Below, piece by piece: positions 34,642 through 64,000 of a stretch of 64,000 nt of DNA. This DNA is from Bacteroidota bacterium (GTDB taxonomy: Bacteria; Bacteroidota; Bacteroidia; 2-12-FULL-35-15). Below the pieces are notes generated by a model. The model saw only the letters and a program-made list of their open reading frames with translations. It was not told the origin of the DNA and searched no databases. The stretch is from the NCBI GenBank assembly GCA_947469885.1, contig CANIQT010000013.1:13604-77603 (forward strand), written 5' to 3'. Every line of letters starts with the position of its first letter. Positions within the stretch are counted from its first letter, which is position 1. The position numbers and the translations under genes were made by a program.

Positions 34642-36708
34642 ATGAAGAAACTCTTTCCCCTAGTTATTGTTATTAATCTTTTACTGTGTCCGGCTTTTGC
34701 TCAAAACAAAGTCATTGATTCTCTTCAAGCAGAATTAACAAAAACAACGGATGATACCACCCGCCTTAAAATATATTTGGCACTTGGCCAGGTATGCAAT
34801 GTAAAAGATAATTTGAAATATGCTCAACCTGCACTGAAGCTTGCAGATAAACTTATTGCTCATACATTTCAGAATAATAAGAAAAATGAATTTTTAAATC
34901 AGAAGGCGGAAGTTTGTATTTTCTTTTCCAATTACTATTTTTATATTAATGATACCGCCAAAATAGCAGAATGGCAGCAAAAACTTATATCTATTTATAA
35001 AGAAACAAAAGATACAAATAGTATTGTGGATACATATTTGGGGTACAGTAGTTATTTTAAGAGTATAGGCAACTTTCCAAAATCATTAGACTGGAGCAAA
35101 AAAGGATTATCCGTATCCACAGAAATGAATTACAAAAAAGGCATTTCAAGGGCGTTATGTTATATCGGAGATATCTATCGCGACCAGGGCGAAAAAGGTC
35201 AGGCACTTCAAAACTATACCAAGGCGTTAAACCTGTTGTACGAGCTTAACGACACCACTTTACTGGTGGATGCATTGTTGGCAACAGGAGGACTTTTCCG
35301 CACTCCTCAATATTATAATCGGGCCCTTGCTTTGTGCGAAGCAAAAAAAATGAATGATAAAGTAAGTTATATCTATCGATTTTTAGGGCAGATATATCGA
35401 GAACATAAAATTTACGATACTTCATTAATAAATTATCAAAAAAGTGCATCACTCTTTGAAGCGATGAAGAATAAAGAAATGGTGAAAGATATTTTGGATG
35501 ATATAGGGTTGGTGTATGAGGAAAAAGGAGATTTGGAAAAAGCACTTGACTATCATTTAAAGGCATTAAAATCAGCCAAAGAACTTAACTATGAATATGG
35601 AATTGCCTCGTCTTATCTTTGTTTGGCTCGTACATACAACAAACAAAAAAATTACAAGCTCGCTAAAGACTATAGCGACCGTGCGCTGAAAATGAAAAAC
35701 CAGTTTAATATTGAAACTAACCGCAATGCCGAACTAACTGCTTCACAAATAGATTCGGCAGGTGGAAATAAAAACGAAGCTTTTGAGCACTATAAGCAAT
35801 ACATCTTGCTTCGCGATAAAATGCAAAGTGAAGAAATACACAAAGCAGCAGCTCAAGAGAAATTTCAAAACGAATTTGATAAACAACAGACAATTGCTAA
35901 ATCGGAACAAGAAAAAATAAAAGCAGTGGCAAATGCAGAAAGTAAAAAGCAAAAACTTATACTTCTTTTTGTGGTGCTTGGTTTGATGTTGGTATTGGTG
36001 TTTGCAGGCTTTGTGTTTCGTTCGTTACAGATAAGAAATAAACAGAATAAAATTATCACTTCGCAAAAAGCAGAAGTAGAAAAAGAAAAACAAAGAAGTG
36101 ATGAACTATTGCTTAACATTTTGCCCGAAGAAGTAGCCGAAGAGTTGAAACAAAAAGGAAGCGCAGAAGCAAAACAGTTTGATAATGTTACTGTTCTGTT
36201 TACCGATTTTGTTGGCTTTACCTTGATAAGCGAAAAACTAACACCAAAAGAATTGGTTGCCGAAATACATTATTATTTTACCGAATTTGATAAAATAACA
36301 GAGCGGAACGGGTTGGAAAAAATTAAAACCGTTGGCGATGCTTACCTTGCCATTTGTGGTTTACCTAATGAAGATAAATATCATGCAAAAAAAACGGTTC
36401 AAGCAGCGCTGGAAATAATTGAGTTTATTAATAGGCGGGCAGCAGAAGGAGGAAAGTTTAATATTCGCATAGGTATTAATTCAGGCTCGGTGGTAGCAGG
36501 TATAGTTGGTGTTAAAAAGTTTGCGTATGATATTTGGGGAGATACGGTAAACACAGCTGCAAGAATGGAACAAAACAGCCAAAACGGTAAAATAAATATT
36601 TCAGAATCTACTTATCAGTTAGTAAAAAACGACTTTAAATGTGTACACAGGGGAAAAATAGAAGCAAAAAACAAAGGCGAAATTGATATGTATTTTGTGG
36701 AAAAATAA
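34642..36708 (+). CDS. TPR-repeat sensor adenylate/guanylate cyclase (class III), membrane-anchored
   Basis: Signal peptide, then multiple TPR-like repeats, a TM helix LILLFVVLGLMLVLVFAGFVF, and a cyclase domain with VLFTDFVGFT and KTVGDAY motifs. Confidence 0.8.
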   Translation: MKKLFPLVIVINLLLCPAFAQNKVIDSLQAELTKTTDDTTRLKIYLALGQVCNVKDNLKYAQPALKLADKLIAHTFQNNKKNEFLNQKAEVCIFFSNYYFYINDTAKIAEWQQKLISIYKETKDTNSIVDTYLGYSSYFKSIGNFPKSLDWSKKGLSVSTEMNYKKGISRALCYIGDIYRDQGEKGQALQNYTKALNLLYELNDTTLLVDALLATGGLFRTPQYYNRALALCEAKKMNDKVSYIYRFLGQIYREHKIYDTSLINYQKSASLFEAMKNKEMVKDILDDIGLVYEEKGDLEKALDYHLKALKSAKELNYEYGIASSYLCLARTYNKQKNYKLAKDYSDRALKMKNQFNIETNRNAELTASQIDSAGGNKNEAFEHYKQYILLRDKMQSEEIHKAAAQEKFQNEFDKQQTIAKSEQEKIKAVANAESKKQKLILLFVVLGLMLVLVFAGFVFRSLQIRNKQNKIITSQKAEVEKEKQRSDELLLNILPEEVAEELKQKGSAEAKQFDNVTVLFTDFVGFTLISEKLTPKELVAEIHYYFTEFDKITERNGLEKIKTVGDAYLAICGLPNEDKYHAKKTVQAALEIIEFINRRAAEGGKFNIRIGINSGSVVAGIVGVKKFAYDIWGDTVNTAARMEQNSQNGKINISESTYQLVKNDFKCVHRGKIEAKNKGEIDMYFVEK

Positions 36709-36835
36709 TACCCAAATAAAAAAAGCAATGTAGGCATTGCCAAGCCCCCCGCCCTGTTGACCATAGCCTCTGACTAAATTCGATTTAACAAGACTTCCAG
36801 TCTTTTTAGCCTTTGTTGGTGTTTTTCACCAACAA

Positions 36836-37053
36836 ACGTGTGAAGAAAAAAATCGGGATATTTAATTTCGTACGTTTGCAGGTGAAAAACACCTGCAAAG
36901 GCATCGTTTTCGTTAATAATTAAGAACACCAACAACGGCTAAAAACGTGTGAAGAAAAAAATCGGGATATTTAATTTCGTACGTTTGCAGGTGAAAAACA
37001 CCTGCAAAGGCATCGTTTTCGTTAATATTTAAGAACACCAACAATGGCTAAAA
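36836..37053. repeat. two tandem copies of a 109-bp unit (98 percent identical), each containing a 10-bp-stem hairpin TTTGCAGGTG-aaaaa-CACCTGCAAA; flanked upstream by an inverted partial copy (ttttagcctttgttggtgtt, 36816-36835)
   Basis: Direct comparison of 36836-36944 with 36945-37053 shows 2 mismatches. The inverted repeat between 36816-36835 and the unit ends aacaccaacaa(c/t)ggctaaaa is visible in sequence. Confidence 0.85.
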
Positions 37054-37405
37054 GGCTTTCAGTATTTTTATTTATATGGTTATCTACACCTTTCTTCAAA
37101 TTCATAAAACAAAGATAAGTATAATTGCTACAGAGCAAAAGTTAAAGGCACAAAAATAAATTAGGGCTTTAATAATTTATACTTCTGTTTGGCATACCTT
37201 CTGATGTAGGCTCAACTATATTTTCAAAATCCTTGTATCTTTTTTAACTTTTTGCGTTATTACTATAAAAACAAAAAATATTTACGGAAAAATGTAACCT
37301 TTTATTTTATCTTTCGTAAAACTAGATATAACCACAAAACAATAAGCGCATGAAACACCCCTACCAACAGTAAACATCAAAAAATCAGTGCGCTTAAAAT
37401 TTTTT

Positions 37406-37446
37406 AACCATTAACCATTATCACTTAACCATTATCCATTAATCAC
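37406..37446 (+). promoter_or_regulatory. cluster of reiterated AACCATTA(TC) motifs upstream of the sigma-factor gene (candidate operator/promoter element)
   Basis: The sequence aaccattaaccattatcacttaaccattatccattaatcac carries three or four copies of CCATTA within 40 bp, ending 16 bp before the TTG-initiated ORF. Confidence 0.25.
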
Positions 37447-37528
37447 GGCTATCGGTTCTTTCTTGTTTGCTGTCCATTCCGTCCACACGGGATTCGTAAA
37501 TTCGTATTTATTAGTTATCCGAACCAGA

Positions 37529-38119
37529 ATGACAAAAGAACAAAAAAGAGAGGCAGAGCAACTTAGAGATGCGCCCCTCATTCAGCAACACAGAGATGGC
37601 GATGCAAAAGCATTTGCCCAACTTGAAAAACTTTACAAAACTCCCCTTTATTGGTATAGCTATAAAAAGCTGGGCAATCGCCCGGATGCTGAAGATGCCG
37701 TGCAGGAAGTATTTATAAGAGCAGTGGAAGCTATCAACAATGGAAACTACAGGGAAGAAATGCATTTTGGCGGGTGGTTGCACACAACAGCCCGCAATTA
37801 TATAGAGCATATTCAGAAAAAGAAAAAGCCAACTATAAAAAATGTGGAAGAATTACCAGAGGTGATGATGGAAGAAACAGAAAGTAAAGAAGAAATTAAA
37901 GAAAAAAGAAAACGGGTACGCAGCCTGTTTAAAGGGTTATCGCTCAGTGAAGCTAAATTAATGTTGCTTCGTTACTGGCATAAACTAAAATGGAAAGAGA
38001 TTGCAAAACGACTTAAAATAACTGAAAAGTATGCATCAGGGCTACATTCAAAGATTATTAAGAAGTTTCAAAAAAAGGCGGGTGAAAATATTTTTTTGAA
38101 AAATGGTGGGATTTTTTGA
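37529..38119 (+). CDS. sigma-70 family (ECF-type) RNA polymerase sigma factor
   Basis: Region-2-like DAVQEVFIRAVEAINNG...GWLHTTARNYI and a region-4 HTH KWKEIAKRLKITEKYASGLHSKIIKKFQKK. The track ORF begins at a TTG (37463). The ATG at 37529 (MTKEQK) is the likelier start. Confidence 0.65.
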   Translation: MTKEQKREAEQLRDAPLIQQHRDGDAKAFAQLEKLYKTPLYWYSYKKLGNRPDAEDAVQEVFIRAVEAINNGNYREEMHFGGWLHTTARNYIEHIQKKKKPTIKNVEELPEVMMEETESKEEIKEKRKRVRSLFKGLSLSEAKLMLLRYWHKLKWKEIAKRLKITEKYASGLHSKIIKKFQKKAGENIFLKNGGIF

Positions 38120-38194
38120 GTTTTGTGTATTGTATATATAAAGGGTGTTATCGTTCTTTAAATAGTAAAATTGATTTCAAGTGAAATCTGTCGC

Positions 38195-38278
38195 GTTTCC
38201 GAAGGAATGCGACACGTTTCCGAAGGAATGCGACACGTTTTCGAAGGAATGAAACAAGTTTCCTTGGAAACAGAACAA
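38195..38278 (+). repeat. four tandem 21-bp iteron-like direct repeats (GTTTCCGAAGGAATGCGACAC x2 perfect, x2 degenerate)
   Basis: 38195-38215 and 38216-38236 are identical. 38237-38257 has 3 mismatches. 38258-38278 is degenerate and contains the palindrome gtttcc-tt-ggaaac. Confidence 0.85.
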
Positions 38279-55692: not shown

Positions 55693-56673
55693 ATGAAAAA
55701 AATATTAAATCTTATATTTTGTGTTTTGTGTTTCGTGAATAATCTCAAGTCGCAAAATCTTGTACCTAACGAATCATTTGAAGTTTTGGACAGTTGCCCA
55801 AACAATCAGGGAAGAATATATCTTGCTCTGCCGTGGTTTCAACCTTGCATATATTCAGGTAATACCCATAACTCTTCAAGCTCCGATATTTACAATCCAT
55901 GTGCTTTATGGGCTCCAGCTGGAGTTCCGGTCAATATGGTTGGTTCCCAATTTGCCAGAATTGGTGTTGGATATGCAGGTATTCACCCAGATGTTGACAC
56001 TTTTAATTACCGCGAATACATTGAAGTCCCATTATTATCGCCATTAATTGCCAATAAACTGTATTGTGTAAAGTTTTATGTTTCCTTGGCTGAAACGTCA
56101 CATCATGCCATAAGTAATATGGGGGCATATTTTTCAAATGATAGCTTATTGGATACTTCGTATTATCATGCCATAGATTATGTTTTTCCGCAAATAGAAA
56201 ATCCTGGAAATGTTTTTTTAAATGATACTGCAAATTGGGTGTTGGTTTGGGGTAATTTTATTGCTACTGGTGGAGAGCGGTTTATGACAATAGGAAATTT
56301 TCATAATCATGCAAATACAAATGTTCAAAATTTGAACGGAGGTTCTCTAGGCAACTGGTCGTATTATTACATAGATGATGTAAGTGTTATAGATTGCGAT
56401 AGTATAAGTGGGGTAAAAGAAATGAATGATGAAATGGAAGTGAGCATTGCGCCCAACCCGGCAAAGGATGAATTACGAATTAAGAATTATGAATTAGGAA
56501 TTAAAACAATAAAAATATATAACCTGCTAAGTGAATGTGTCTATAACACAACAATAAAACAATTAAACACTATAACCATTGATGTTGCCTATTTACCCAA
56601 AGGCATCTATTTTATTGAACTGCAAAGTGAGAAAGGAACTGCGAGAAAGAAGTTTATAAAGGACGGCAAATAG
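55693..56673 (+). CDS. secreted CBM4_9-like domain protein with T9SS type-A CTD (paralog A)
   Basis: Signal peptide MKKILNLIFCVLCFVNNLKSQ, an NLVPNESFE jelly-roll start, and the C-terminal SIAPNPAKDELRIKN...KGIYFIELQ CTD. Confidence 0.65.
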   Translation: MKKILNLIFCVLCFVNNLKSQNLVPNESFEVLDSCPNNQGRIYLALPWFQPCIYSGNTHNSSSSDIYNPCALWAPAGVPVNMVGSQFARIGVGYAGIHPDVDTFNYREYIEVPLLSPLIANKLYCVKFYVSLAETSHHAISNMGAYFSNDSLLDTSYYHAIDYVFPQIENPGNVFLNDTANWVLVWGNFIATGGERFMTIGNFHNHANTNVQNLNGGSLGNWSYYYIDDVSVIDCDSISGVKEMNDEMEVSIAPNPAKDELRIKNYELGIKTIKIYNLLSECVYNTTIKQLNTITIDVAYLPKGIYFIELQSEKGTARKKFIKDGK

Positions 56674-57446: not shown

Positions 57447-58415
57447 ATGAATAAAGCATTCTTTCTTTTCGTAATATTGAACTTGACTCAGAATCTTTCA
57501 ATGAATGGACAAAACCTTGTACCTAATTCCTCTTTTGAAGTAATTGATTCTTGCCCTACTATAGATGGAAAGCTATATTTTGCGCAACCATGGTTTCAGC
57601 CCTGCATTTATTATGGGAACACGAAAAACTCTTCTAGTTCCGACATCTTCAGTTATTGTGCGTCATACATGGGTGTTCCTACTAATGGAGAAGGTTCTCA
57701 ATTTGCAAGGACAGGTAACGGATATGCAGGTTTTAGTCCTTACGCTGGTATTAATAATGGTCGCGAATATAACGAAGTTCAACTATTATCACCGTTAATA
57801 GCCAATAAACTCTATTGTGTAAAATTTTATGTTTCATTAGCTGAAACCTCACGATACGCAATTAGCAAATTAGGTGTGTATTTTTCCGTAGATAGTTTAT
57901 TAGATACTTCCTATTATCATGCAATAGATTATGTTTTTCCGCAAGTAGAAAACCCTAGTAATATTTTTTTAAATGATACATCTAATTGGATGTTGGTATG
58001 GGGAAATTTTGTTGCAACTGGTGGAGAGCGGTTTATGACAATTGGTAATTTTCATAATCCCGCAAATACAAATGTTCAAAACGTAAACGGAGGTTCTTTT
58101 TATTGGACATATTATTATATAGATGATGTAAGTGTAGTAGATTGTGATAGTATAAGTGGGGTAGGGGAAATTAATGGAGAGGTGGATGTGAGCATTGCGC
58201 CTAATCCTGCAACGGATGAATTACGAATTAAGAATTATGAATTAGGAATTAAAACAATAAAAATATATAACCTGCTAAGTGAATGTGTCTATAACACAAC
58301 AATAAAACAATTAAACACTATAACCATTGATATTGCCTATTTACCCAAAGGCATCTATTTTATTGAAGTACAAAGTGAGAAAGGAATAAAGAGGAGAAAG
58401 TTTGTGAAAGAATAA
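57447..58415 (+). CDS. secreted CBM4_9-like domain protein with T9SS type-A CTD (paralog B)
   Basis: The 322-aa product is collinear with paralog A at about 75 percent aa identity. Its CTD coding part is nearly nucleotide-identical to that of paralog A. Confidence 0.65.
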   Translation: MNKAFFLFVILNLTQNLSMNGQNLVPNSSFEVIDSCPTIDGKLYFAQPWFQPCIYYGNTKNSSSSDIFSYCASYMGVPTNGEGSQFARTGNGYAGFSPYAGINNGREYNEVQLLSPLIANKLYCVKFYVSLAETSRYAISKLGVYFSVDSLLDTSYYHAIDYVFPQVENPSNIFLNDTSNWMLVWGNFVATGGERFMTIGNFHNPANTNVQNVNGGSFYWTYYYIDDVSVVDCDSISGVGEINGEVDVSIAPNPATDELRIKNYELGIKTIKIYNLLSECVYNTTIKQLNTITIDIAYLPKGIYFIEVQSEKGIKRRKFVKE

Positions 58416-58918: not shown

Positions 58919-61900
58919 ATGAAAAGAGTACTTTTCCTTGTTTCCTTATTTGTTTTCAATTTTGCATTTGGTCAGGCTCCGCCAAATGATAACTGTATAA
59001 CCCCACAGGTTATTGTTATTCCTGCATCTGGTACAATTTGTGTTAACTCAACCAACATAAACGCCACAAGCGATGGGTTTCTGAACACTTGCGATGTAGG
59101 TGTTCCGGGCAATGAAGTATGGTTTGCATTTGTTGCAACCGGAACTTCCAACACTGTTACAATCACACCAAATGGCGGGACTCCTGCACAGTTTGCGGTG
59201 GTTTCGATGCAAAATACCAATTGCGCTTCGGGCTCTTATAACATTTGTAATGCCAGTGCAACAGCAGGTGGTGCGGCATCGGTTACTTATTCTTACACTC
59301 CGGGTTCCCAAATATTATTTTCGGTAGAAACAGAAGGGGCAGACGGAACCTTTCAGGTGTGTGTAACCTCCACTACTCCACCTCCCGGACCAGGTAGTTC
59401 GTGTGCTACCGCAACATCTATTTGTACAATGGCTCCGTTTACTCAAAATCCAATGCCGTCCAATGTGACTGCATTGTTACCATCTTGTTTTTTTGTTAAT
59501 CTTCAACAACCGGTGTTTTATCAGTTTACAGCTGGTACCACCGGAACTTGTGCTTGGTCTGCTACTCCGCTTGGAGCGGTTGAATACGATTGGGCAATGT
59601 ACAATATTACAGCTGGTTGCCCAGGAGTGGAAGTTGCTTGCAATTATGATTATAATTTCAGCGCAGGTTCACCTGTAGGAATGGCTATAGGTTCGCCATC
59701 CCTCTGCCCAACTAGTTCAGTGGCGGTGAGTGCATCTGATGAAATGTGCCCTCCCATTGTTGTCACAGCCGGGCAAACCTATTTGATTGTGATAGATAAT
59801 TTCGACTTTAATGGTATCGGATTTGATTTTGCTTGGGGCAATGGAACTTTTCAGATGCCAAGTTCTTCGTTTACTGTAAATCCAACAAATGCCTGCAATT
59901 CGGCACTTGCTACATTTGTAAATAATAGTGTGCCTGTTGCTGCTGCTTCTCATTGGGATTTTGGTGATGGAACTACTTCTAACCTTCACAGTCCGCCACC
60001 ACACAATTATCCTACACCCGGAACTTATTTGATTTCGTTAACCACTACTACCGCTAACGGTTGTCAATATATCAGTTCGAACAGTGTTACGGTAAATACG
60101 ACACCAACCATGACCACACCACCCAACATTTCGGTGTGTGCAGGTACAGCCATTGCAGCAAGTAATTTTGTGAGTAACCCTACGGGAGCCACCTTCGCAT
60201 GGACCAACTCAAATAACGCCATCGGATTGGCTGCTAATGGAACAGGAAACACCCCTGCTTTCACTTCCACTAATGGTACAGGTTCAAATATTGTTTCTAC
60301 CATCACTGTTACTCCTACTCGAAATGGATGTGCGGGAACACCAGTAAATTATACTATTACTGTTACACCTGGTCCAACCATTGCTAATGCAGGTCCCGCA
60401 CAAAGTGTTTGCGGTACAACAGCCACACTTGCCGGAAACACAGCAACTACAGGGGTAGGAACATGGACACTCGTTAGCGGTGCAGGAACAATTACAAATC
60501 CGAATTCACCAACATCTGGTGTAACAGGGCTTGGAGTAGGTGCCAATGTTTTTCAATGGACAATTATTAGTGCACCTTGCCCAAATTCTACTAGCCAAGT
60601 AACTATCACCTCTGGAAACGCCACCAGTGCCTCGGTTGCAGGTCCTAATCAAACCGTTTGTGGCACCACAGCAACACTAGCAGGAAATGCTCCTGCGGTT
60701 GGTGTGGGTACTTGGACATTAGTAAGCGGAGCAGGAACTATCACTACTCCCGGTTCTCCAACATCAGGGTTAACCGCCCTTGGAGTAGGTGCCAATGTTT
60801 TTCAATGGACAATAACCAACGCAGGATGCCCTTCTACTTCTAGTCAAGTAACTATTACTGCAGGTGCTATACCAACTGTGGCAGTTGCAGGAGGTAATCA
60901 AATTGTATGTGGAACAACTGCTACATTGGGTGGTAACACCGCAACTGTTGGTGTTGGCACATGGACACTGGTTTCGGGAGCAGGAACCATTACCAGTCCT
61001 AATTCACCATCATCAGGTGTAACAGCACTTGGACCCGGTGCCAATGTATTTCAATGGACGATTGCACTTTTACCCTGTCCTGCTACGTCAAGTCAAGTAA
61101 CCATCACTTCGGTGCAAGTACCCACTGTAGCTGCTGCAGGACCTAATCAAACCGTTTGCGGAACGAATGCAACATTAGCAGGAAATGTTGCAGCCATCGG
61201 AACCGGGCTTTGGACTGTCGTTAGCGGTTCGGGAACAATTGCCAACACTGGATTAAACAACTCTGCTATAACAGCACTTGGTGCAGGAGCCAATGTGTTT
61301 CAATGGACTATATCGAATGCACCATGCGCTTCCACATCAGGTCAGGTAACCATAACAGGAGTTACACCACCAACGGTGGCAGCTGCAGGACCTAATCAAA
61401 CTGTTTGTGGAACTACCGCTACATTAGCTGGAAACCTTGCTGCATCAGGCACAGGGCTATGGACATTGATAAGCGGTACAGGAACAATTACTACCCCGTC
61501 TTCTGAAACATCAGGATTAACAGCACTTGGAGTAGGAGCCAATGTATTTCAATGGACCATATCCAATGCGCCTTGCCCTACATCCACTAGTCAGGTAACC
61601 ATTACAGGAGTTGCGGTGCCTACTGTAGCTGTTACGGGACCTAACCAAACAGTTTGTGCCACTACCACCAACTTAGCCGGAAACATTGCAGCTGCTGGTT
61701 CAGGGCTTTGGACATTAGTAAGCGGAGCAGGAACAATAACAACACCAGCATCCGAATCAACTGGAATAACAGCACTTGGCATAGGAGCCAATGTGTTTCA
61801 ATGGACCATCTCAAATGCACCTTGCCCTTCCACTTCGAGCCAGGTAACCATTACCGCAGGCACACCTTCTACAGTTGCAGCTGCCGGACCCAATCAAACC

Positions 61901-64000
61901 GTTTGTGGAACGTCAGCAACACTTGCAGGAAACGCTGCTGTGGTTGGAGTTGGAGTGTGGACACTGGTTTCAGGAAGCGGAACCATTACCAATCCTACGT
62001 TACCTAATTCGGGAGTTACGGGTTTAGGATTTGGAGCCAATGTGTTTCAATGGGAAATTGATAATCTTCCTTGTCCTCCATCCACTAGTCAGGTAACTAT
62101 TACAGCTGTTGATGTTCCTACTGTTTCGGTGGCAGGTCCTAATCAAAATATTTGCGGAACTACCGCCACATTAGCCGGAAATGCTGCAACAACAGGCACG
62201 GGACTATGGACATTGGTTAGTGGAAGCGGAACTATTTCAACACCTTCGCTCGCAACATCAGGTATTACAGGGTTGACAGTGGGTAACAATGTTTTCGACT
62301 GGACCATTTCCAATGCACCTTGTCCTGCTTCTTCTACACAAGTAACTATTGCTGTTAGTTCCATACCAACGGTTGCCAATGCAGGACCTAATCAAACTGT
62401 ATGCGGAACAACAGCTACATTAGCAGGAAATACTGCTACAACAGGTGTTGGAACCTGGACATTAATTTCAGGTGCCGGAACAATTACTAATCCTGCATTG
62501 GAAAATTCAGGTGTTACAGGTCTTGGACCGGGAGCAAATGTGTTTCAATGGCAGATAGATTTATTGCCTTGCCCGCAAACAACCAGTCAGGTAACTATTA
62601 CATCCGTTGCTACTCCAACTGTGGCAGCAGCTGGACCTAACCAAACAGTTTGCGGAACAACTGCAACATTAGCAGGAAACCTTGCTGCCGTGGGTACAGG
62701 AGTATGGACATTAGTTTCAGGAACTGGAACAATTACCAATACAGGATTAAATAATTCAGGTATTACAGCACTTGGAGCAGGAGCTAATGTATTTCAATGG
62801 ACTATTTCGAATGCGCCTTGTCCTGCTTCTACTAGTCAGGTAACCATTACAGGCGTTTCTATACCAACTGTTGCCAATGCAGGAGCTAATCAAACAGTTT
62901 GCGGAACCAATGCTACATTAGCCGGAAATGCTGCTGCTGTTGGTACAGGAGCATGGACAGTCGTTAGCGGAAGCGGTACATTTACAAATTCTACCTCTGA
63001 AACATCAGGTATTACTGCACTTGGAGTAGGTGCCAATGTTTTTGAATGGACGATATCAAATGGTATTTGTCCTCCAACATCAAGTCAGGTAACCATTACA
63101 GGAGTAGCTACTCCAACCGTTGCTGCTGCAGGACCTAACCAAACCATTTGTGCTACTACAGCTACATTAGCCGGAAATATTGCCACCACAGGCACAGGAG
63201 TGTGGACAGTAGTAAGTGGTGCAGGAACTATCACTAATCCTGCTTCTCCAACTTCAGGAGTTACTGGCTTAACTGTTGGTACAGATGTGTTTCAATGGAC
63301 GATTACTAATGCACCTTGTCCTGCAAGTTCAAGTCAAGTTACAATCACAGTAGGTGCCCCAACCACTATTGCTAACGCTGGTGTAAATCAAAACGTTTGC
63401 GGAACAACAGCTACTTTAGCAGGTAATGTGCCTGTTACCGGAACAGGTGCATGGACAGTAGTTAGCGGAGGAGCAACTGTTACAAGTCCATTAGCTTTCA
63501 ATTCAGGTGTTACCAATCTTGCACCTGGGGCTAATGTTTTTGAATGGACTATCTCTAGTGCTAACTGTCCTCCAACTACCAGTCAGGTAACTATTACAGC
63601 TACTCCAATACCTCCTGCACCGGTTGTTGTATCGCCTCTCAACTATTGTCAGTTTGATGTGGCAGGTGTTCTTTCAGCTACAGGAACCAATTTATTATGG
63701 TACACCAATTCCACTGGTGGTGTTGGAAGCCCTATAGCACCAACTCCTTCTACTACTTTATCTGGTACCACTAATTATTATGTTTCGCAAACAATAAACG
63801 GATGCGAAGGTCCGAGAACTTTTATTGCGGTGATTGTGGCTACCTTTCCTGTTGCAAGTTTTTATGCTCCGTTAACAAGCAGTATCGAAAATCCGGTTAT
63901 TCATTTTACAGACGAATCAGTGGGTGCTACTTCATGGTCGTGGAATTTTGGTGATTTTTCATCAGGAGCAAATAACACGAGTACTTCTCAAAACCCAACC
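58919..64000 (+). CDS. giant cell-surface adhesin-like protein, 5' 1694 codons (continues beyond window): N-terminal domain, PKD domain, then 13 tandem ~80-aa Ig/PKD-like repeats
   Basis: Signal peptide MKRVLFLVSLFVFNFAFGQ and a PKD-like HWDFGDGTTSNLHSPPPHNY. Repeats of the form PTVAAAGPNQTVCGTTATLAGN...GTWTLVSGAGTITNP...GANVFQWTISNAPCP.STSQVTIT run from about 60350 to 63600 with a 240-bp period. Antisense track ORFs within are artefacts. Confidence 0.75.
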   Translation, partial: MKRVLFLVSLFVFNFAFGQAPPNDNCITPQVIVIPASGTICVNSTNINATSDGFLNTCDVGVPGNEVWFAFVATGTSNTVTITPNGGTPAQFAVVSMQNTNCASGSYNICNASATAGGAASVTYSYTPGSQILFSVETEGADGTFQVCVTSTTPPPGPGSSCATATSICTMAPFTQNPMPSNVTALLPSCFFVNLQQPVFYQFTAGTTGTCAWSATPLGAVEYDWAMYNITAGCPGVEVACNYDYNFSAGSPVGMAIGSPSLCPTSSVAVSASDEMCPPIVVTAGQTYLIVIDNFDFNGIGFDFAWGNGTFQMPSSSFTVNPTNACNSALATFVNNSVPVAAASHWDFGDGTTSNLHSPPPHNYPTPGTYLISLTTTTANGCQYISSNSVTVNTTPTMTTPPNISVCAGTAIAASNFVSNPTGATFAWTNSNNAIGLAANGTGNTPAFTSTNGTGSNIVSTITVTPTRNGCAGTPVNYTITVTPGPTIANAGPAQSVCGTTATLAGNTATTGVGTWTLVSGAGTITNPNSPTSGVTGLGVGANVFQWTIISAPCPNSTSQVTITSGNATSASVAGPNQTVCGTTATLAGNAPAVGVGTWTLVSGAGTITTPGSPTSGLTALGVGANVFQWTITNAGCPSTSSQVTITAGAIPTVAVAGGNQIVCGTTATLGGNTATVGVGTWTLVSGAGTITSPNSPSSGVTALGPGANVFQWTIALLPCPATSSQVTITSVQVPTVAAAGPNQTVCGTNATLAGNVAAIGTGLWTVVSGSGTIANTGLNNSAITALGAGANVFQWTISNAPCASTSGQVTITGVTPPTVAAAGPNQTVCGTTATLAGNLAASGTGLWTLISGTGTITTPSSETSGLTALGVGANVFQWTISNAPCPTSTSQVTITGVAVPTVAVTGPNQTVCATTTNLAGNIAAAGSGLWTLVSGAGTITTPASESTGITALGIGANVFQWTISNAPCPSTSSQVTITAGTPSTVAAAGPNQTVCGTSATLAGNAAVVGVGVWTLVSGSGTITNPTLPNSGVTGLGFGANVFQWEIDNLPCPPSTSQVTITAVDVPTVSVAGPNQNICGTTATLAGNAATTGTGLWTLVSGSGTISTPSLATSGITGLTVGNNVFDWTISNAPCPASSTQVTIAVSSIPTVANAGPNQTVCGTTATLAGNTATTGVGTWTLISGAGTITNPALENSGVTGLGPGANVFQWQIDLLPCPQTTSQVTITSVATPTVAAAGPNQTVCGTTATLAGNLAAVGTGVWTLVSGTGTITNTGLNNSGITALGAGANVFQWTISNAPCPASTSQVTITGVSIPTVANAGANQTVCGTNATLAGNAAAVGTGAWTVVSGSGTFTNSTSETSGITALGVGANVFEWTISNGICPPTSSQVTITGVATPTVAAAGPNQTICATTATLAGNIATTGTGVWTVVSGAGTITNPASPTSGVTGLTVGTDVFQWTITNAPCPASSSQVTITVGAPTTIANAGVNQNVCGTTATLAGNVPVTGTGAWTVVSGGATVTSPLAFNSGVTNLAPGANVFEWTISSANCPPTTSQVTITATPIPPAPVVVSPLNYCQFDVAGVLSATGTNLLWYTNSTGGVGSPIAPTPSTTLSGTTNYYVSQTINGCEGPRTFIAVIVATFPVASFYAPLTSSIENPVIHFTDESVGATSWSWNFGDFSSGANNTSTSQNPT

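Follow-up and report, generated by a model that had tools for sequence, protein, structure and literature searches.

The 109-bp tandem repeat that lies between a cyclase gene and a sigma-factor gene in the window, the whole 64-kb stretch of DNA that was analyzed, is very probably part of a REPIN/BIME-like REP cluster belonging to the subclass 2.6 RAYT-associated family of Bacteroidota, the right part of which was recently duplicated in tandem. Judged by its sequence, each hairpin in the cluster is a REP and a putative substrate of a RAYT, an HUH tyrosine transposase. A REP family of this kind has already been described, there is no new RNA gene here, and the locus itself is ordinary; recognizing it as REP keeps a structured repeat from being annotated as a small RNA, a terminator array, or a peptide gene. 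To our knowledge, almost all work on REP/RAYT systems has dealt with Proteobacteria.

The host genome is low in GC (~35%), and the cluster is sited in an 820-nt intergenic region, where it lies 100 nt past the cyclase stop codon. Neighboring genes, including those for a WG-repeat protein and a TonB-type receptor, look like those of Bacteroidota. The features of the region are given below in order of position, with the evidence for each in parentheses; L028, L049, and L069 are loci of the metagenome-assembled genome CANJYB01, which is taken up further on.

34642-36708, plus strand: TPR-adenylate/guanylate cyclase gene, the upstream neighbor (Pfam Guanylate_cyc)
36803-36945, no strand: composite element, REPIN/BIME-like, 143 nt, made up of REP-A, a spacer, an inverted REP-B, a spacer, and an inverted half-REP (inverted repeats, single-stranded DNA fold, unduplicated copies in CANJYB01)
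36809-36836, plus strand: REP-A, of the TT/AA type, with the foot GCC at 36809-36811, the stem at 36812-36821/36827-36836, and the loop TTTTT at 36822-36826 (nhmmer family profile, E 2.5e-12)
36834-36942, no strand: tandem unit 1, 109 bp, comprising spacer 1, REP-B, spacer 2, and the half-REP (TRF and repeat search)
36837-36874, no strand: spacer 1, 38 nt, resembling the spacer of L069 and unlike those of L049 and L028 (alignment)
36875-36902, minus strand: REP-B copy 1, of the CA/TG type, which reads GCC-TTTGCAGGTG-TTTTT-CACCTGCAAA on the minus strand (nhmmer, E 5e-10; pattern match)
36924-36945, minus strand: half-REP copy 1, a foot and left arm (GCCGTTGTTGGTGTTC) without the right arm (weak nhmmer match at 36925-36941; inverted repeat)
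36943-37053, no strand: tandem unit 2, 109 bp plus 2 (TRF, repeat search, unit comparison)
36984-37011, minus strand: REP-B copy 2 (nhmmer, E 5e-10; pattern match)
37033-37053, minus strand: half-REP copy 2, the closing end of the duplicated block (nhmmer match at 37034-37051; inverted repeat)
37529-38119, plus strand: ECF-like sigma-factor gene, the downstream neighbor (Sigma70_r2)

An initial annotation of this DNA had described two 109-bp units of 98% identity, each with a hairpin whose loop is aaaaa, and both descriptions were borne out. TRF returned a period of 109 with 2.0 copies, 98% matches, and a score of 426 at 36834-37053, and a repeat search placed the copies at 36834-36942 and 36943-37051. 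The units are distinguished by two substitutions, A/T at 36919 and C/T at 36936 (37028 and 37045 in unit 2), and because the copies have diverged by only ~2%, the duplication appears to be recent. The duplicated stretch of 109 bp runs from the last bases of the REP-A hairpin (hairpin A) to the outer end of the element, with its junction inside the AAA at 36834-36836, a 3-nt microhomology. The hairpin TTTGCAGGTG-AAAAA-CACCTGCAAA is found in both units, at 36875-36899 and 36984-37008, and a third hairpin of the same design but opposite orientation, TTTGTTGGTG-TTTTT-CACCAACAAA, stands ahead of unit 1 at 36812-36836. All three copies in the window have a GCC foot, a 10-bp stem, and a 5-nt loop, with hairpin z-scores of −5 to −6 (−9.7 kcal/mol and z −5.0 for REP-A; −10.8 kcal/mol and z −6.0 for REP-B copy 1). 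REP-A agrees with the family consensus at every position, and the stem of REP-B departs from that of REP-A by a two-base change that is compensated on both arms (TT/AA versus CA/TG).

The inverted partial copy that the same annotation had placed at the edge of the repeat exists, though with another position and length: it spans 24 nt, pairs 36803-36826 with 36922-36945 at 92%, and is not the 20 bp directly before unit 1, which form a palindrome in their own right (hairpin A). The same left arm has a second possible partner at 37031-37053 (23 nt, 91%). Half-REP copy 1 is the right arm of this outer inverted repeat, and the homologous GGAACACCAACAAGGGC is present in L049. Within the element, REP-A and REP-B make up a doublet whose 46-nt arms (36809-36854 and 36857-36902) are 78% complementary and can be folded as one long hairpin. 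Folded as single-stranded DNA, 36803-36945 reaches −34.1 kcal/mol (z −6.9) on the plus strand and −35.5 kcal/mol (z −7.8) on the minus strand.

The degenerate hairpin pattern TTTGNNGGTGWWWWWCACCNNCAAA matched three times in the window, against 0.07 matches expected by chance, and a profile search recovered one REP cluster in the 64 kb, with three full and two half copies. A survey of one genome per species in GTDB r232 with the same pattern yielded 109 stretches, ~93 of them in Bacteroidota, and several genomes had many loci. The hairpin was present in Flavobacteriales (Psychroserpens, Lacinutrix, Gelidibacter, Lutibacter, and Oceanihabitans), Chitinophagales (Niabella, Segetibacter, and Ilyomonas), Cytophagales (Runella, Arcicella, Fulvivirga, Ekhidna, Roseivirga, and Cesiribacter), and Sphingobacteriales (Mucilaginibacter). 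For consensus statistics, 110 Bacteroidota instances were oriented by their loop, which produced the family consensus GCC-TTTGTTGGTG-TTTTT-CACCAACAAA. The TTTTT loop is present in 100 of the 110, Watson-Crick pairing of the two free stem positions (with six pair types) is seen in 99, and the GCC foot is found, on one side only, in 90, versus none of 15 matches from other phyla. The Bacteroidota instances are almost all intergenic. The ~15 matches from other phyla were taken as chance, given that they have no flanking signature and lie mostly inside ORFs. The ~90 related loci provide a defined Bacteroidota REP consensus consisting of a GCC foot, a 10-bp stem, and a T5 loop.

Family members commonly come as inverted doublets with 35-78 nt between them, or as arrays in which full and half sites are combined. 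At eight other family loci the hairpins are overlapped by tandem repeats of 63-255 nt, from which we infer that tandem amplification is habitual in this Bacteroidota REP family. With a profile built from the instances, 221 copies were detected in the retrieved loci; none was detected in a 477-kb background of unrelated, mostly Bacteroidota DNA that had been fetched by a metagenome scan for relatives of the cyclase. No hairpin copies were found in 2.9 million viral contigs, which argues that the element is not phage-borne.

Clustering of the ORFs near the hairpins gave one recurrent neighbor, a protein of ~172 aa, at 12 loci (15 by tblastn), and no RAYT-type ORF occurs in the 477-kb background. 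The protein carries the HUH motif NH[ILF]H[LIV][IV]W and the tyrosine motif Y.YSS, and it matched the NCBIfam model NF047646 ("REP-associated tyrosine transposase") with E 6e-20 to 3e-23 (71-82 bits); of the four proteins tested, two exceeded the curated cut-off and the other two fell slightly short of it. The match to Pfam Y1_Tnp was weak, the sole match in the PDB was 4ER8, E. coli TnpArep (E 3e-4), and the IS200 model NF033573 reached 22 bits against a cut-off of 55. Each of the eight full-length RAYT genes is preceded by a foot-bearing T-loop hairpin, mostly 44-82 nt before the start codon, and followed by an inverted hairpin 2-17 nt past the stop; this flanking of the gene by inverted hairpins in all eight cases is the signature of a REP/RAYT system (REPtron). 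The RAYT-flanked reference copies, together with the doublet and tandem architectures, could be used for annotating the family and for tests of RAYT specificity. One of the contigs recovered, L039 (JBQGCI010000617.1; 4.4 kb), is labelled as an Acinetobacter pittii MAG and encodes a RAYT that shares 92% identity with the one from Niabella hibiscisoli (L093) and has the same REPs on its flanks; mis-binning of a contig from Chitinophagaceae is the likeliest explanation.

The copies most similar to those of the window come from the MAG CANJYB01, which contains eight exact hairpin copies in seven loci; another genome, CALGLR01, contains copies in at least seven loci. A composite of ~140 nt occurs in CANJYB01 at four or more loci, among them L049, L069, L028, and L115, in other gene contexts and without the 109-bp duplication, and in L049 it is present once. 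Its architecture is REP-A of the TT type, a spacer of 24-38 nt, an inverted REP-B of the CA type, a spacer, and an inverted half-REP (GAACACCAACAnnGGC). Because the spacers fall into two unrelated subtypes and an extra hairpin is inserted in the REP-B of L069 and L028, it is only the REP modules that are conserved. The inserted sequence, at L069:5476-5510 and L028:~395-430, is a perfect palindrome (TCCCGCACGTGCGGGA) and perhaps represents another type of repeat lodged inside the first.

Among Logan contigs, four from independent runs (L001-L004) end at 36833/36834, the first base of the tandem repeat, and the REP cluster explains why short-read assemblies break exactly here. Exact-protein look-ups of the flanking genes added L008 and L009, which start inside the repeat, and L005, which is identical to the window. 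No copy-number or presence/absence variants were seen among these strain contigs, all of which end at the repeat, start in it, or equal the window. No empty site was found, the cyclase relatives in metagenomes being only paralogues or distant homologues at ≤45% identity over near-full length, in addition to one C-terminal fragment (L186) at 65% identity. A metagenome scan (JGI) with a unit-specific 28-mer returned no matches, and the organism is absent from those metagenomes. Two contigs from other metagenomes (L006:1-803 and L007:1-126) are 99.5-99.8% identical to the window over the sigma-factor gene and the sequence downstream, and they lose all similarity to the left of ~37188-37218. Their upstream sequences differ from each other and from the window, and that of L006 has a minus-strand ORF of 162 aa; the sigma-factor module thus occurs in at least three contexts. 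The boundary at ~37188-37218 could mark a rearrangement breakpoint beside the REP cluster or one end of a segment that is mobile or duplicated.

The assignment to a known family follows the description of TnpA_REP subclass 2.6 (group 5 of Bertels), whose members are proteins of ~179 aa, mostly from Bacteroidetes, that carry NH[LIV]H and YIH[QN]NP and are bordered by atypical REPs in which GTAG is lacking (Quentin et al. 2018, PMC6006769). The RAYTs found here, at ~172-175 aa, share the motifs NH[LIV]H and YIH[QN]NP, and the REPs of this subclass and those described here are alike in their 10-bp stem (GTTGTTGGTG/CACCAACAAC), T-rich loop, GCC(G/T) foot, and lack of GTAG (PMC6006769). Table S1 of the same paper gives a hairpin with this type of foot, stem, and loop, GCCGTTGTTGGTGTTATCACCAACAACC, for the Runella slithyformis RAYT AEI49282.1; its stem starts with GTTG, whereas the stem starts with TTTG here. 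The window also differs from the subclass in that it contains non-autonomous repeats only, with no RAYT gene anywhere in its 64 kb, and in that TT/AA and CA/TG stem variants are paired in one doublet. The 16-mers that flank group 5 RAYTs match in abundance those found beside insertion sequences (Bertels et al. 2017). A literature search by sequence strings returned eukaryotic primer coincidences only.

Compared with the REPINs of Pseudomonas and Enterobacteria (Bertels and Rainey 2011, PMC3116915), the arrangement is alike in being an inverted REP pair with a short spacer that forms one long hairpin, is dispersed in intergenic space, and is tied to a single-copy RAYT. It is unlike them in that the foot is GCC and not GTAG (canonical GT[AG]G), and in that the members of the doublet are systematically different stem variants accompanied in the unit by a third, truncated REP. 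The density of one cluster in 64 kb is also much lower than that of enterobacterial and pseudomonad REPs. The subterminal hairpins of IS200/IS605 elements offer a further analogy, in that the hairpin and foot here may likewise act as a hairpin-plus-guide substrate of a Y1 HUH enzyme and leave no target-site duplication; unlike those elements, the one described here carries no transposase, and the enzyme associated with it is of the RAYT family and not IS200. In the BIMEs of E. coli, REP subtypes alternate in orientation, are separated by linkers, and are amplified head to tail, and the host proteins IHF or gyrase bind at them. The composite of TT/AA and CA/TG REPs is similarly repeated head to tail (109 bp × 2), although there are only two units here and the sequences are unrelated.

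An exact 25-nt REP core with the GCC foot is found in four Bacteroidota orders, an occurrence across orders that is a lower bound and an apparent invariance that is partly imposed by the search, the exact-match pattern having fixed the core; the associated RAYTs are 42-56% identical. The REPs of Proteobacteria, by contrast, are genus-specific. Such conservation might, though we consider it doubtful, reflect either an unusually ancient, tightly constrained RAYT-REP partnership or a function of the hairpin at the level of the host, for instance as a protein-binding or 3′ end processing site. On a host function, the paired TT/AA and CA/TG variants would be a functional heterodimeric unit, by analogy with the Y and Z REPs, which act as a paired unit in BIMEs.

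Other readings of the repeat were weighed against a REP cluster. A stack of intrinsic terminators serving the cyclase, or a block that ends transcription in both directions between the two genes, would account for the position of the cluster 100 nt past the cyclase stop and for the want of a canonical plus-strand terminator of the cyclase's own, and ~72% of family members do face the 3′ end of a gene with their foot side; effects of E. coli REPs on termination and mRNA stability have been reported (PMC3733652). The remaining ~28%, however, face 5′ ends on the foot side, a terminator scan called none of the three hairpins, no U tract lies within 2 nt of a stem on either strand, and the GCC foot, the inverted doublets, and the flanking of RAYT genes are not properties of terminators. 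We therefore regard this reading as improbable. The stacked terminator array suggested by the initial annotation fails for lack of a U tract directly after the stem; the T-rich tail that it had noted, GGCATCGTTTTCGTT, is present, though it starts 7 nt past the stem and was not called by the scan. At most, the hairpins may contribute secondarily to forming 3′ ends or stabilizing mRNA, which would be compatible with their identity as REPs. Tandem small RNA genes, also put forward in the initial annotation, would make each unit an RNA of ~100 nt ending at the hairpin and its T-rich tail, and two observations agree with this: RNA folding of the region gives a strong structure (z −5.6), and a Bacteroidetes-type −7 box, TAcgTTTG, is found in each unit, at 36871 and 36980. 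Yet the box is formed by the TTTG of the REP stem and is missing from L049, conservation across loci is limited to the REP hairpins and foot, the spacers being of unrelated subtypes, and the family occurs in both orientations, adjoining both 5′ and 3′ gene ends and flanking RAYT genes, so that small RNA genes seem highly improbable. At the gathering threshold, Rfam searches of the whole window and of 18 related loci gave no match to the repeat; with E up to 10, the only matches in 36500-37700 were sub-threshold ones to models of miRNA precursors from plants and animals, which fit long hairpins in general, and the Rfam matches elsewhere, to a tRNA and a Flavo-1 RNA, are unrelated.

Two further readings can be given almost no credence. 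Each unit holds a frame, open from a GTG at 36840 or 36949 to a stop, for a 27-aa peptide (VKKKIGIFNFVRLQVKNTCKGIVFVN[N/I]), which would make the units tandem genes for precursor peptides; the frame is lost in homologous elements, L049 having no start codon and L069 being frameshifted by the inserted hairpin, and it crosses a palindrome that is conserved at the DNA level. None of the longer ORFs on the minus strand matched Pfam. A DDE-type MITE is no more credible: the 24-nt outer inverted repeat does bound a 143-nt unit, but there is no flanking direct repeat (CCAGTC on the left versus GGCTTT on the right), the apparent terminal inverted repeats are REP half-sites, and the associated protein is a Y1 HUH enzyme and not a DDE enzyme. 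A neutral, one-off duplication of unique sequence, which the initial annotation had tied to finding no other copies anywhere, is excluded by the many copies in other genomes. Its remaining suggestion, a replicative or recombinational element, pointed in the right direction, since the hairpins are the REPs of a RAYT family. An integron attC site was also considered and rejected, as the arms do not fit RYYYAAC/GTTRRRY.

For the REP cluster, a mechanism can be proposed by analogy with E. coli TnpA_REP and IS200/IS605: a RAYT whose gene lies elsewhere in the host genome would bind the folded hairpin and its foot on single-stranded DNA, cleave there, and rejoin the ends, an activity that would spread the elements and possibly amplify them. 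The duplication itself may have arisen by slippage or unequal exchange at the AAA microhomology of the junction or, alternatively, by RAYT-mediated strand transfer at the hairpin feet. Should the cluster affect the neighboring cyclase or sigma-factor gene, for instance by protecting 3′ ends or terminating transcription, this would be a by-product.

Several minor observations concern the same intergenic region. The "cyclase terminator" that had been placed before the units corresponds to a hairpin at 36724-36741 that is terminator-like on the minus strand only; in the sequence after the cyclase stop (36714-36741), the minus-strand stem runs from 36741 to 36724 and is then followed by a T run. 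Minus-strand −7 boxes (TAnnTTTG) are located at 37117-37110 and 37158-37151, with a TTTG 18 nt upstream of the first, and the chance frequency of TAnnTTTG in the window is ~1.4 per 820 nt; a minus-strand transcript of ~390 nt across the REP cluster is conceivable. The heptamer TTAACCA is repeated ~5.6 times at 37404-37446, ~85 nt upstream of the sigma-factor start, and a 21-nt unit (CGTTTCCGAAGGAATGCGACA) is repeated 3.3 times at 38194-38263, between the sigma-factor gene and the next ORF; these repeats may be operator or iteron-like sites.

Elsewhere in the window, TRF detected three short tandem arrays at 56470-56569 that recur 1748 bp downstream, at 58218-58317, with identical periods, copy numbers, and consensus sequences, which suggests a duplicated segment or gene. 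Finally, a 249-nt unit is repeated ~10 times at 60637-63177, with 68% match and a higher GC content (44-48%), and is probably part of a gene for a repeat-domain surface protein.
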